From: an uncultured Candidatus Saccharibacteria bacterium
GTDB lineage: Bacteria > Patescibacteriota > Minisyncoccia > Phycocordibacterales > JAACPR01
Reading direction: 5' to 3'
Length of the DNA: 49,337 bases
Assembly: GCA_964589635.1 (NCBI GenBank)
Contig: CAZPRI010000003.1
Coordinates: forward strand, 1 to 49,337
The notes beneath the pieces are model-generated. The model was given only the letters and a program-made list of their open reading frames with translations, made no database searches and had not been told where the DNA came from. Made by a program: the position numbers and the translations under genes. This document shows positions 4,501 to 45,467 of this stretch, piece after piece (the stretch's first letter is position 1; each line of letters starts with the position of its first letter).

Positions 4501-4832
4501 TCATACCTATAAGCCGAATTCTGTAACTCGTTAGACGAGCCGGTAATCATTTATCTGGACCACACATTACTCTGTGGTTCTAGCGGCACTCCCCTCGATT
4601 ACTCTCGGGACTCGGCCTTGCACGAAGGTAAGGATTTTGCCGTTTCATTCTTATGTTTCCATAAGATTATTCCCTAGGGAATCCTAGATCTTTCGATTTC
4701 GGCGTCACTGCTCGCACCTCTACAATTACTTGCGACGGGTGTTACCCGCTACCATTCTCTCCTGCTCTACAAAAGTTTCACAGGACCCGTGTTCGGACTT
4801 TCCTCCCCTAAATTAGAGGTAATTACCCAGTA
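4501..4832 (-). ncRNA. rnpB: RNase P RNA, bacterial type A
   Basis: The reverse strand carries GGGGAGGAAAGTCCGAAC, the universal GAGGAAAGUCC P4 motif. It also has GGTAACACCCG, GCAAGGCCGAG, AGATAAATGATTACCGG and the 3' ACAGAATTCGGCTTATAGG, in the E. coli M1 RNA order. No ORF is present. The ends are approximate to about 10 nt. Confidence 0.9.
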
Positions 4833-17076: not shown

Positions 17077-17760
17077 CTATTTCTTTACTACTTTTTTCTT
17101 TGGAAGCGCAGAGTCCATAAGTTCTTCTGCTTTTTTCTTTCCACCAAGGCCAAATGCTAATGCGAGAGCTAAAACTATACCAGCAAATAGAATTTGAATC
17201 AAAGATGGAGCAATTCCAAGCTGTAGAAGCGCAGCAAGAGATGTAAACAAAATAAGTGCCCATTTTGTAATATCCCCCATCATTCCTGGTTTCTCTATTG
17301 GAGTATTTGAGCCTTCAATAGATTTTGTAACAATTGCTCCAAAAAAGTTTCCAGCGATAACTCCAAAAACAAGAATTATTACCGCAATCAATACTTGAGG
17401 TACATAGAAAATAATTTCGTTCAAGAACTCTGTAACCCTATCCCATCCAAGAACATCGGCCGCTGCCATAATGAAAGCAAGAATGAAGAACCATTTTACA
17501 ATTTTTCCTAGCAATAATGAAACTGAAAAGTTTGGTGAGTAACCACTCATCATTTCTTTTAATCCCATTTTTGCAGAAAGCTCATCGATTTTCAAAACAT
17601 CGATAATTTTCTTTACAATTCCTCCCAAGATTGGGGCAACAATAAATCCAACTAGGACTATTATTGCTGCTCCAATTAGGTCAGGAAGAATTCCAAGTAC
17701 TCTTACCCATAAATCAATAAGAGATGCTTGTACAACTTGTGCGAATGAATATCCAGACAT
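17077..17760 (-). CDS. Membrane protein with conserved TM-helix repeats (TM_helix-like)
   Basis: The 227-aa ORF has repeated units of the form ..LP.LIGA.IILVVGF.VA.. and a Lys-rich C-terminus. Confidence 0.5.
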   Translation of the reverse strand: MSGYSFAQVVQASLIDLWVRVLGILPDLIGAAIIVLVGFIVAPILGGIVKKIIDVLKIDELSAKMGLKEMMSGYSPNFSVSLLLGKIVKWFFILAFIMAAADVLGWDRVTEFLNEIIFYVPQVLIAVIILVFGVIAGNFFGAIVTKSIEGSNTPIEKPGMMGDITKWALILFTSLAALLQLGIAPSLIQILFAGIVLALALAFGLGGKKKAEELMDSALPKKKVVKK

Positions 17761-23295: not shown

Positions 23296-23366
23296 TGCCT
23301 GATCGTCTAATGGTAGGACTACGGTTTCTGGTACCGTCAATTGGGGTTCGAGTCCCTATCAGGCAG
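23296..23366 (+). tRNA. tRNA-Gln (CUG)
   Basis: Manual cloverleaf: acceptor TGCCTGA/TCAGGCA with U1-A72, a 3-bp D stem, anticodon arm ACGGT-TTCTGGT-ACCGT, and T arm TGGGG-TTCGAGT-CCCTA. CCA is not encoded. Confidence 0.9.
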
Positions 23367-23369
23367 CAT

Positions 23370-23417
23370 AAAGTAGTCAGGTCCGTAAGCGATTAAGCTT
23401 TCGGACCTTTCTACTTT
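23370..23417 (+). other. Hairpin directly after tRNA-Gln
   Basis: AAAGTAGTCAGGTCCG pairs with CGGACCTTTCTACTTT, giving 14 bp with a 2-nt internal mismatch. Confidence 0.6.
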
Positions 23418-23428
23418 AACTGATTAAG

Positions 23429-23555
23429 AGGACGAGAAAACCGGAGGCTCAGGGCCCCTGTATCCGTAACCTGTGGAAGATCTGGGATAGCCGAGTCGAG
23501 GTCGCGAAAATTTTGTTTGGCAAAATTATTTGTGACCGAGTCCCTATCAGGCAGC
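23429..23555 (+). other. tRNA-linked conserved non-coding element, copy A, ending in a 19-nt copy of the tRNA-Gln 3' end
   Basis: 23429-23537 is about 90 percent identical to the reverse complement of 33831-33938. 23537-23555 is identical to 23349-23367. It contains a bulged hairpin at 23500-23537. Confidence 0.8.
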
Positions 23556-23616
23556 CACGTAAAAAACATAACAAAAAAGCAGGTATACTAACCTGCTTTT
23601 TTGTTATGTTCACGTG
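23556..23616. terminator. Very long perfect hairpin, terminator-like and bidirectional
   Basis: AACATAACAAAAAAGCAGGT-ATACTA-ACCTGCTTTTTTGTTATGTT is a 20-bp stem, extended by CACGT/ACGTG. Confidence 0.7.
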
Positions 23617-23764
23617 GCGCAGCCGGGTGAACAATTTCCCGTTAGGAAATAGTTTTTACGTGGTCGCGTGAGACGACTGAAAGGAAGATTATACGCGACT
23701 GATTCTCATAAAAATTTTAACTTTTCTTTACAACTCATTGAGAACTTTTAGTTAATCTTTCAAT

Positions 23765-24022
23765 ATGTTTTATGTTTATCTTTTAGATCATATACAAGAC
23801 AAAACTTGGTATATAGGATACACCACAAATCTGGAAAGAAGACTTAGCGAACATCAAAATGGTGGTGGTTCGAGAACAACAAGCCTTAAAAAAGGAAACT
23901 ATAAACTCATATACTACGAAGCTTATTTGAATAAGCAAGATGCAACAAGCAGAGAGAAATATCTCAAAAGTGGCTCAGGAAGAAAATATATTAAAAAACA
24001 ACTAAGGAATTATTTATCCTGA
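23765..24022 (+). CDS. GIY-YIG nuclease superfamily protein (UPF0213-like, 85 aa)
   Basis: FYVYLL......WYIGYTTNLERRLSEHQNG is the GIY-YIG signature. Confidence 0.8.
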   Translation: MFYVYLLDHIQDKTWYIGYTTNLERRLSEHQNGGGSRTTSLKKGNYKLIYYEAYLNKQDATSREKYLKSGSGRKYIKKQLRNYLS

Positions 24023-33817: not shown

Positions 33818-33938
33818 ATCGAAGGGACTCGGTCACAAATATTTTCTACGAAAATTTCGCGACCCCGACTCGACCATCCCAGATCCTCCACAAGTTACGG
33901 ATACAGGGGCCCTGGGCCTCCGTCTTTCTCGTCCCTGT
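33818..33938 (-). other. tRNA-linked conserved non-coding element, copy B, ending in a 14-nt copy of the tRNA-Asp T-arm and acceptor start
   Basis: The reverse complement of 33831-33938 is about 90 percent identical to 23429-23537. 33818-33831 is identical to 33997-34010 within tRNA-Asp. It contains a bulged hairpin at 33831-33864. Confidence 0.8.
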
Positions 33939-33946
33939 TCGCTGTT

Positions 33947-33988: not shown

Positions 33989-33992
33989 AATG

Positions 33993-34066
33993 CGCGATCG
34001 AAGGGACTCGAACCCTCAACCTCCCGCGTGACAGGCGGGTGCTCTAACCAGTTGAGCTACGACCGC
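33993..34066 (-). tRNA. tRNA-Asp (GUC)
   Basis: Manual cloverleaf: acceptor GCGGTCG/CGATCGC, D arm GCTC-AACTGGTTA-GAGC, anticodon arm CCCGC-CTGTCAC-GCGGG, and T arm GAGGG-TTCGAGT-CCCTT. Confidence 0.9.
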
Positions 34067-44774: not shown

Positions 44775-45440
44775 TGACAACGTCGGACGTTGCCAAAATT
44801 ATTATTAATATTTTAAAGTTTATTTAGATATTCTTTATGAAATTATAGTAAAAAATAATACATGGAGAGTTTTTTTGAAAATGAGTATTATCATATTTAT
44901 GTTAGAGGAAAAAATAAAGAGAACATTTTTTTAGAAGAAAATGATTATTTAAGAATGATGGCTTTAATAAACAATTGCAATAAGATCGATTCAGACTCCC
45001 TGTCTAGAATATTAAGAAAAAATAACATCAAAGAACTATGTGCATATAAAGAACTATGTGCATATAAAGAAAACCAAACTTCTTTTCTAGAAATGCAGTC
45101 TTTTACAATAATGCCAAATCACTTACATCTTATGTTTAAAAGCTTAAGTCCTAAATTTACGGGGCATTTCATGAGAAGAATACTTACATCATATGCAAAA
45201 TACTTTAACCTAAAATATTCAAACATAGGACATGTCTTTGAGAGTAAATATAAATTTGAACATGTAAACACACAAGAATACTTTGATATCTTACTTAGTT
45301 ATATAAGGAACAATCCTTTAAAATTATTAGACAAAAAATATAAACACATAGACCTTATAAACGGGATCTACAAAATTTCACCTGAAATAGATATCTTTAT
45401 TAAAAATTATCCCTATTCTTGGCAACGTCCGACGTTGACA
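44775..45440 (+). mobile_element. RAYT/IS200-like unit: HUH-Y1 transposase gene bracketed by inverted 22-bp REP hairpins
   Basis: The left end at 44775-44796 is TGACAACGTCGGACGTTGCCAA. The right end at 45419-45440 is TTGGCAACGTCCGACGTTGACA. Each contains the palindrome CAACGTC-N-GACGTTG. Confidence 0.8.
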
Positions 45441-45467
45441 GACTCAACCATGTCATTCATTTCCTGA
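44862..45467 (+). CDS. REP-associated tyrosine transposase (IS200/IS605 TnpA-like, HUH-Y1)
   Basis: YHIYVRGKNKENIF, the HUH motif in IMPNHLHLMF, and the catalytic Tyr region LSYIRNNPLK are present. The ORF contains an in-frame 18-bp tandem duplication, and its 3' end reads through the right REP into rpe. Confidence 0.8.
   Translation: MESFFENEYYHIYVRGKNKENIFLEENDYLRMMALINNCNKIDSDSLSRILRKNNIKELCAYKELCAYKENQTSFLEMQSFTIMPNHLHLMFKSLSPKFTGHFMRRILTSYAKYFNLKYSNIGHVFESKYKFEHVNTQEYFDILLSYIRNNPLKLLDKKYKHIDLINGIYKISPEIDIFIKNYPYSWQRPTLTDSTMSFIS

Follow-up and report, generated by a model that had tools for sequence, protein, structure and literature searches.

Folded, gene-less modules behind tRNA genes of a Patescibacteria genome and the strand-specific hairpin at their end

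Architecture of the modules and of the terminal hairpin

The DNA analysed here is a stretch of 49,337 nucleotides (the window; contig CAZPRI010000003.1 of assembly GCA_964589635.1, positions 1–49,337) from an uncultured Candidatus Saccharibacteria bacterium of the order Phycocordibacterales, whose genome (G000) measures 590 kb and is 93% complete. Two transfer RNA (tRNA) genes in the window, tRNA-Gln(CUG) and tRNA-Asp(GUC), are each followed by a gene-less module, of a type about 100–160 nucleotides long, that contains a bulged hairpin, P3, as its 3'-terminal and most conserved stem. Comparison with homologues indicates that P3 is a conserved structure acting on one strand only, the tRNA-sense strand. 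In both copies, copy A behind tRNA-Gln and copy B behind tRNA-Asp, the order of elements is the same: the tRNA, an A-rich trailer with a GC-rich terminator-like hairpin, a segment X', the junction GAAA(G), helix P2, the junction GGG, P3 and a segment X_right. X' is antisense to the 3' segment of the neighbouring tRNA and X_right is a sense copy of that segment. X' pairs with X to form helix P1, and the module is therefore a three-way junction of P1, P2 and P3. The stem of P2 has a variable tip and contains a conserved internal loop, CGGAG/CGAG, that is rich in purines. Since the modules stand behind tRNA or transfer-messenger RNA (tmRNA) genes and contain both X' and X, the tRNA 3' segment is present three times, in the order direct, inverted, core, direct. 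The module contains no open reading frame (ORF), and 145–233 bp lie between the repeats. Folding a whole module from one sequence does not recover the three-way junction, which is given by the comparative data only. The features of the two copies are as follows.

23296–23367, forward: intact tRNA-Gln(CUG) (ARAGORN, Rfam, sequence); its segment from C56 onward, 23349–23367, is X_left, the left repeat copy
23370–23417, forward: terminator-like hairpin between tRNA-Gln and the module (sequence)
23420–23436, forward: X', a degenerate antisense of the tRNA-Gln 3' segment (CTGAT..GGAC-GAG), 5' strand of P1, ending opposite C56 (sequence, P1 covariation)
23437–23499, forward: junction GAAA, helix P2 (including GGCT/AGCC) and junction GGG, here GAG (consensus, covariation)
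23500–23537, forward: helix P3, 16 bp; pair 5 is a conserved G.U, A23528 is bulged, and the C (23537) of the closing G-C pair is tRNA C56 (sequence, covariation, folding)
23537–23555, forward: X_right, which repeats 19 nt of the tRNA-Gln 3' segment exactly and in direct orientation, from C56 through the base after the discriminator, 3' strand of P1 (sequence)
23565–23610, forward: second terminator-like palindrome, after X_right (from the sequence only)
33992–34066, reverse: intact tRNA-Asp(GUC), host of copy B (ARAGORN, Rfam)
33928–33946, reverse: X' of copy B, AACAGCGAACAGGGAC-GAG (sequence)
33865–33927, reverse: junction GAAAG, P2 and junction GGG of copy B (sequence)
33831–33864, reverse: P3 of copy B, a 15-bp stem in which the A is bulged as in copy A (sequence, folding)
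33818–33831, reverse: X_right of copy B, 14 nt equal to tRNA-Asp from C56 (CGAGTCCCTTCGAT), diverged beyond (sequence)

The hairpin at 23370–23417, together with the A-rich trailer and its T-rich complement, makes up the tip of a long imperfect palindrome that extends from X_left to X'. Module-free tRNA genes of the same genome carry a hairpin of the same style. Behind the second terminator of copy A, in region 23611–23690, the segments GGCGCAGCCGGG ... GGTCGCGTGAGACGAC resemble a degenerate X' and the 5' strand of P3 and may be the wreck of an older module.

In copy A, P3 has the sequence GGTCGCGAAAATTTTGTTTGGCAAAATTATTTGTGACC and is composed of the parts GGTCGCGAAAATTTTG-TTTGG-CAAAATTATTTGTGACC, the two arms pairing over 16 bp that include two G.T pairs, with A23528 bulged out. 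In copy B the reverse complement of 33831–33864 reads GGTCGCGAAATTTTCGTAGAAAATATTTGTGACC, with the parts GGTCGCGAAATTTTC-GTA-GAAAATATTTGTGACC; here the stem contains 15 bp and two G.U pairs, and the bulged A is located on the 3' strand as in copy A. Relative to copy A, the loop-closing pair has changed from G-C to C-G and one A-T pair is gone from both strands. A preliminary description, made from the letters of the window, had proposed both bulged hairpins, the swapped closing pair and the joint loss of the A-T pair; its coordinates and sequences are exact, both hairpins fold as claimed and both changes are seen as stated. The same description had put forward a second helix between GGCT (23446–23449) and AGCC (23489–23492). 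This is helix P2b, all four pairs of which change on both sides. Its remark that the remaining substitutions are mostly transitions is roughly right, with seven transitions and one transversion between copies A and B outside the hairpin.

The folding energy of the tRNA-sense strand is -15.9 kcal/mol for copy A and -13.3 kcal/mol for copy B, corresponding to z-scores of -5.5 and -4.9, and none of 200 shuffled sequences is equally stable. The opposite strand reaches only -7.7 (A) and -6.3 kcal/mol (B), the sense fold being about twice as strong.

Covariation, strand asymmetry and the boundary at C56/G57

Two sets of homologues were compared: A3, with 71 distinct modules, and A4, with 76 distinct modules from copy-rich genomes and from other classes (partly other genomes). 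Both were fitted to the model, by which the degree of pairing is somewhat inflated and the number of distinct pair types is not. In A3, 15 of the 16 pairs of P3 show changes on both sides and 96.6% of the cells are paired; in A4 the values are 14 of 16 and 95.5%. For the whole structure, 93.5% of the cells in A3 are paired versus 72% after shuffling (0 of 500 shuffles reach the observed value, nor does any in A4), and when the partners are slid by 1–3 columns the paired fraction is 36–47% in A3 and 36–52% in the slid controls over A3 and A4. An unfitted MAFFT alignment of 15 copies, analysed with RNAalifold, gives the same helices, with compensatory changes in 20 of 31 pairs. P1 covaries strongly with the identity of the tRNA, and the P2 helices covary too, in A3 as in A4. 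What had been claimed from two copies, that the stem is kept by compensatory change, is borne out strongly by the fitted homologues and by the unfitted alignment.

The base of the P3 stem, GGUCG/UGACC, is nearly invariant. Pair 5 is G.U in 63 of the 71 modules of A3 and in 72 of the 76 of A4, pair 7 is by turns G.U, G-C or A-U, and pair 6, otherwise C-G, is A.G in one subfamily. Of 69 sequences, 68 keep the bulged A. Over 131 distinct modules, the 2034 cells of P3 contain 181 G.T combinations versus 10 A.C, and 96.3% of the cells pair on the tRNA-sense strand versus 87.9% on the other strand. Recognition of duplex DNA would not yield such an asymmetry, which therefore points to a single strand of tRNA sense as the functional form. 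The preliminary description had suggested that both strands be compared, structure on one strand only being a sign of a role as RNA or single-stranded DNA; by the pair counts as well as by the folding energies the structure is confined to the tRNA-sense strand.

The C that closes P3 is the T-loop residue C56, the first base in common with the tRNA. X_right starts at G57 in 46 of the 47 first modules (those directly after the tRNA), whatever the isoacceptor; in the one exception it begins in the last bases of the tRNA. This start does not depend on the T-loop sequence, which may be GAGUC, GAUUC, GAAUC, AAGUC, AAUUC or another. In an independent, named sample of 77 modules selected by pattern, 58 have a tRNA at most 360 nt upstream, and 41 of these 58 start in the T-loop; among the rest, second members of arrays predominate together with decayed copies and a minority type in which X consists of the last bases of the tRNA and the trailer. 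The observation, first made on the window, that the hairpin ends exactly where the tRNA-derived sequence begins thus extends to most modules of both samples. The exact repeat is from 4 to at least 60 nt long, with a mode of 18–24 nt (beginning in the T-loop and running a few bases beyond the tRNA). Modules of the minority type (L023, 1430–1561; L007, 612–703; L138 of G120, 155–250) have CCACAAA or CACCAATT as X and TTTGTGG as X', and some of these trailer-type modules are without the GAAAG junction.

X' is a better complement of X_left than of X_right, in 34 versus 8 cases, with mean duplex energies of -25.8 versus -20.5 kcal/mol. Several modules have an X_right of as little as 6–10 nt, with X' still a near-perfect, 16–20-nt complement of the tRNA end that includes gene-encoded trailer bases (for instance in L009, L050, L065, L027 and L054). 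X_left, trailer, hairpin, trailer complement and X' form one long palindrome, which can be perfect in young copies, as in L117, where 18 of 18 positions pair around a 3-nt loop. The inner 5–8 pairs of P1 with X_right are always retained. Closure of the junction and the long antisense arm both appear to be maintained.

Distribution and turnover of the modules

With a covariance model, eight modules are found in G000, at 8 of the 26 tRNA and tmRNA genes detected (about 31%): tRNA-Gln, Asp, Val, Lys, Cys, Arg(CCU) and Leu(UAG) and the tmRNA gene. The Leu(UAG) module is apparently divided over two contigs (end of contig 19, start of contig 22). The module is present in 125 of 151 sampled genomes of the order (83%), with up to 22 copies per genome, and in 8 of 151 genomes of a phylum-wide sample, other classes included. 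The same core of about 100 nt stands behind at least 19 tRNA isoacceptor types and the tmRNA gene. Among the matches listed for a strict P3 pattern are contigs labelled Taylor-, Adler-, Wolfe-, Yonath-, Niyogi-, Harrison-, Kaiser-, Lloyd- and Nomurabacteria and Paceibacteria, as well as many labelled Saccharibacteria (labels as given). The matches listed also comprise contigs labelled Elusimicrobiota and Gammaproteobacteria (L188, L211, L230, L251 and L200), those listed under Elusimicrobiota being four on three contigs of one metagenome-assembled genome and one in a second; these labels could stem from mis-binning, mislabelling or real transfer.

Rfam 15 yields no match to the module at gathering or permissive thresholds, only the tRNAs, and a full-text literature search for such a structured RNA or mobile element returned no description. 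Two patterns run against the 2.9 million viral contigs of IMG/VR found no copy, and thus no phage-borne attP site. This family of small, folded, gene-less tRNA-end elements in ultra-small Parcubacteria is apparently undescribed.

For 34 of 75 cores, taken from the junction to the end of P3, the nearest relative lies in the same genome, and it hardly ever stands at a tRNA of the same type. The Val, Asp and Gln cores of G000 are 86–91% identical and their spacers are unrelated; the core of copy B is 91% identical to that of the tRNA-Val copy, on another contig, and 86% identical to that of copy A. Pairs of close cores share an identical C56–C64 9-mer in 5 of 12 cases versus 5 of 175 (the pairs are not independent). 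In the congener G001 nothing is found behind tRNA-Gln(CUG), and its tRNA-Asp is followed by a module of like architecture with a quite different P3 sequence, of another subtype.

Tandem arrays also occur. A perfect tandem of a 139-nt unit (X, spacer, X', core) runs behind tRNA-Leu(UAG) into the end of a contig (L052, 1450–1800; contig 26 of G044), and further arrays are present in L058, L013 and L117; arrays can have decaying distal members. Several other contigs start or end inside modules; the element therefore breaks assemblies. Public contigs with the neighbouring proteins are all identical or broken at the element, and the congeners are too diverged for DNA alignment. The turnover data fit a repeat that spreads or is homogenised within genomes, and movement and gene conversion are not separated by them.

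Several further arrangements were seen at these tRNA ends. In L117 (contig 3 of G130), a second, unrelated core type, AAGCCCGATTGAG...GGGGTACTGCTCCTGTAAGGAG, is present at 273–360 and 681–770, between the same X' (GTCAGGGACTCG) and X (CGAGTCC...) flanks and at the same C56 position; it is interleaved with ordinary modules in one array behind tRNA-Gln, and its end is also found in L012. On contig 21 of G000 (L002, 1298–1376), upstream of tRNA-Val, the first ~20 nt of the gene and the upstream bases (AGAAGGAAGGGCGATTAGCT) occur twice, about 60 nt apart, which means that part of the 5' end of this gene is duplicated too. On contig 19 of G000 (4693–4760), an 8-nt copy of G57–C64 (GAATCCTC) lies 55 nt downstream of a module-free tRNA-Tyr, just past the terminator; it may be a footprint or chance. 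In L044 (~1240–1470) and L017 (~1220–1440), modules follow tRNA-like 3' ends that ARAGORN does not call, and motifs of the GATATAGTCC type upstream suggest tRNA genes interrupted by a group I intron.

Candidate enzymes, related systems and interpretation

G000 encodes two Xer-like tyrosine recombinases, two distant Y1 transposase genes (PF01797) and one reverse transcriptase. The Y1 ORFs, at 44862–45467 of the window (forward) and at 17504–17755 of contig 9 (a length of about 200 amino acids is given for both), are distant matches to Y1_Tnp and to the repetitive extragenic palindrome (REP)-associated tyrosine transposase (RAYT; 32 bits). Of the 151 genomes of the order, 91 have PF01797, often more than once (up to 13 copies), and its presence shows no association with that of the module: the four cells are 79, 46, 12 and 14 (odds ratio 2.0, p = 0.13), 46 of the 125 genomes with the module having no PF01797 and 12 of the 26 without the module having it. 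Four genomes (G003, G037, G060 and G075) contain 9–15 modules and no PF01797 match, and G073 contains 13 matches and no module. The reverse transcriptase, present in only 62 of the 151 genomes, does not track the module either. The divergent second Xer-like recombinase of G000 was considered as a partner and rejected, with an orthologue in only one of 150 other genomes (G150). No match to TnpB (PF07282, PF01385) is found in the 93% complete G000; the best score there for the integron integrase IntI (TIGR02249) is 138.5 bits versus a cut-off of 265, from a protein that is Xer-like; and no integrase adjoins the modules, despite up to 22 copies in genomes of about 0.8 Mb. Whatever acts on the module is universal host machinery, the nucleic acid itself, or nothing.

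The preliminary description had likened P3 to the folded single-strand recombination sites of integrons and of HUH or Y1 transposases. The analogy stands as far as the strand asymmetry, the wobble pairs, the extrahelical A and the position of the stem on the junction of element and target are concerned; membership in either group does not, since Y1/HUH and reverse transcriptase genes are uncorrelated with the module and TnpB and IntI are not found in the 93% complete G000, and the module is therefore neither an attC site nor an IS200/IS605 end. A site of the attC type, recombined by an integron integrase, would share the imperfect, structure-specific hairpin with an extrahelical base and its use as a single strand, but no RYYYAAC/GTTRRRY (R''/R') boxes are present in or around the module (23420–23560), where the stem base is GGUCG/UGACC instead, there are no cassette ORFs, and the target is a tRNA T-loop; this origin is scarcely credible. 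It is very unlikely, too, that the module is a miniature IS200/IS605 or REP/REPIN element, cut and pasted as single-stranded DNA by a RAYT-like Y1 HUH transposase acting in trans. REP/REPIN-RAYT systems and the miniatures of IS200/IS605 (palindrome-associated transposable elements) are likewise short, gene-less, hairpin-forming, multi-copy and strand-specific; the stem of the module has an extrahelical base and lies at the element end, and Y1-like genes exist in many of the genomes with one of them in the window; what separates them from the module, besides the lack of co-occurrence with Y1 genes, is the geometry of hairpin and cut. The hairpins of IS200/IS605 ends lie 10–19 nt from the cut and no target repeat is formed, peel-and-paste transposition making neither a target repeat nor an inverted target copy, whereas P3 abuts the junction base and both an 18–24-nt direct repeat and an inverted copy of the target are present here. 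A third possibility is an attL/attR scar, the leftover arm of an integrase-bearing island or prophage in the tRNA T-loop whose genes have since been lost. The Williams 2002 classification reportedly includes integrative elements of tRNA genes with T-loop-type attachment sites. Elements of this class have in common with the module that the tRNA is intact and that a displaced direct copy of its 3' end, from the T-loop to just past the tRNA, is found at the far end, a signature of T-loop-type integrases. In the module, however, one core family serves about 20 tRNAs, there is neither integrase nor cargo (the only recombinases of this kind in G000 being the two Xer-like proteins), and an inverted target copy, RNA-like covariation and a strand-asymmetric three-way junction are present that double-stranded arm sites would not need. 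With the negative result among viral contigs, these points make a scar highly improbable.

In another possible explanation, the module is a structured non-coding RNA produced by read-through from the tRNA promoter, in which P1 mimics an acceptor/T-arm minihelix. Such a transcript would be open to trimming and stabilisation by RNase P, RNase Z and the CCA-adding enzyme, with P2 and P3 serving as catalytic parts or as binding sites for a conserved cellular factor. The module is always oriented as the tRNA; its G.U wobbles, its invariant bulged A, its tandem G.A-type loops and its purine-rich junctions are what a functional RNA typically shows; P1 amounts to the full 12-bp acceptor and T stack where X' is long (as in L006 and L009); a terminator follows X_right in several copies; and the module is conserved across the order and beyond, with no transposition enzyme found. 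On the other hand, read-through would have to overcome the strong terminator-like hairpin, followed by a T-tract, that separates module and tRNA, and the space is too short for a promoter of the module's own. The frequent shortening of X_right to 6–10 nt means that the minihelix mimic is not kept, while X' is still complementary to the real tRNA. In the number of copies, in their tandem arrays and decay and in the grouping of cores by genome the modules look like a repeat element, and Rfam contains no matching family. We regard this explanation as the main rival of the mobile-element explanation given below, possible but less likely than that.

The closest analogy among known systems is the folded single-strand attachment site attP(+) of phage CTXphi. 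Integrative mobile elements exploiting Xer (IMEX) of the CTXphi type have no recombination gene of their own and use a folded strand of two inverted, target-like arms, as P1 covaries with its target here; when integrated they show direct, inverted and direct target-like segments, and they form tandem arrays. Host Xer-type proteins are the only tyrosine recombinases in G000, but such genes are near-universal, and their presence therefore tells nothing about catalysis by XerC/D. The module does not belong to the IMEX family and differs from it in that its target is the T-loop of any tRNA or tmRNA gene and not dif, in that its arms change with the target, and in that it measures 100–190 bp and has no cargo. 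A scan for dif-like sites, by which a likeness of P3 or P1 to dif might have appeared, gives only noise in this AT-rich genome. The omega-RNA of TnpB/IscB resembles the module in having a structured scaffold that abuts a variable stretch equal to the local target. It differs from it, as the "guide" here is paired in cis with an antisense copy, TnpB was not found in G000, and Rfam gives no HEARO or omega-RNA match.

Other structural candidates were tried and rejected. A hammerhead is suggested by the junction and GAAA, but its CUGANGA/NUH motifs would fall on covarying pairs of P3. The bulged A 8–9 nt from the end and the terminal "AC" recall domain VI of a group II intron, but a domain V-like AGC helix is missing and the unit is shorter than 200 nt; compared by hand with domains V and VI, the would-be core bases are covarying pairs. 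Ribozymes of the hepatitis delta virus-like, twister, pistol and hatchet types give no Rfam match at E <= 5. A kink-turn in P2 is contradicted by a bulge of only 1 nt and by the change of G.A to C.A in a subfamily. An origin by reverse transcription was also discarded: besides the uneven presence of the enzyme, CCA in place of the CA of the gene occurs in four X_right segments, about as expected by chance (by reading, with no computed test). Where X' is informative, it copies gene trailers and not CCA.

The module family is probably a tiny mobile DNA. We give an even chance to the more specific explanation that P3 is the junction-defining, single-strand end stem of a non-autonomous mini-element that targets tRNA ends and is moved by host functions. 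The module would be, or would formerly have been, an element acting as a folded single strand, in which P3 and the adjoining P1 set the point where element and target join. It could spread by template switching during replication, or by recombination via the 8–10 nt of T-arm sequence common to the donor flanks and the recipient tRNA, and at each new site the target end would be copied in inverted and in direct orientation. Two template switches, a fold-back at the trailer/terminator hairpin and then a jump through a donor module via the shared T-arm nucleotides, would produce the direct-inverted-direct order in which the core marks the second turn. Such template switching would account for several features: X' and X always derive from the local tRNA, the boundary at C56 is inherited, related cores have T-arm sequence in common, and no dedicated enzyme is visible. 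The topology would be equally compatible with recombination at a folded single-strand site by host Xer, as in CTXphi.

Several points weigh against this explanation. Among public strain contigs there is no transposition event, no near-identical strain pair with empty and filled sites and no excised form, and no catalyst was found, Y1/HUH, reverse transcriptase, the second recombinase, TnpB and IntI each being absent or uncorrelated. The likeness of cores within a genome could be due to gene conversion between old, vertically inherited modules. The left and right terminators differ in most copies, which template switching explains poorly, and the inserted part would be either the spacer with its hairpin or X_right. 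Conservation of the core across the order and in other classes exceeds that of most selfish miniature elements, and a role as a cellular RNA or in protein binding fits it equally.

In a bolder variant, which we think rather unlikely, the P2-P3 core and its purine-rich junction would themselves act as the catalyst or would alone determine specificity, and nucleic acid would be broken and rejoined precisely at tRNA positions 56/57 with X' as a re-programmable guide. If true, the core would be a new class of self-cleaving or self-ligating RNA or a structure-guided DNA element, and the module a protein-independent or host-enzyme-driven mobile element that colonises any tRNA gene end.

Streamlined genomes of 0.5–1 Mb thus contain up to about 20 copies of one conserved folded element with no visible enzyme of its own, at tRNA gene ends, which are among the most conserved sites of a cell. 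If the module is mobile, a structure of about 100 nt would be able to spread by host functions and target-templated copying alone, and would be a likely cause of contig breaks at tRNA genes in assemblies of the candidate phyla radiation. If it is an RNA, few unclassified structured RNAs of Patescibacteria would be as widespread. Under both alternatives, the stem that folds on one strand, the junction fixed at C56/G57 and the antisense arm that can be re-targeted offer a concrete substrate on which cleavage, ligation or binding can be assayed.

Just downstream of module A, an ORF for an 85-amino-acid GIY-YIG nuclease (Pfam GIY-YIG, 6e-17) is located at 23765–24022 on the forward strand, with no link to the module seen. 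A short palindrome, ATTTCCCGTTAGGAAAT, lies at 23634–23650, between module A and this ORF.

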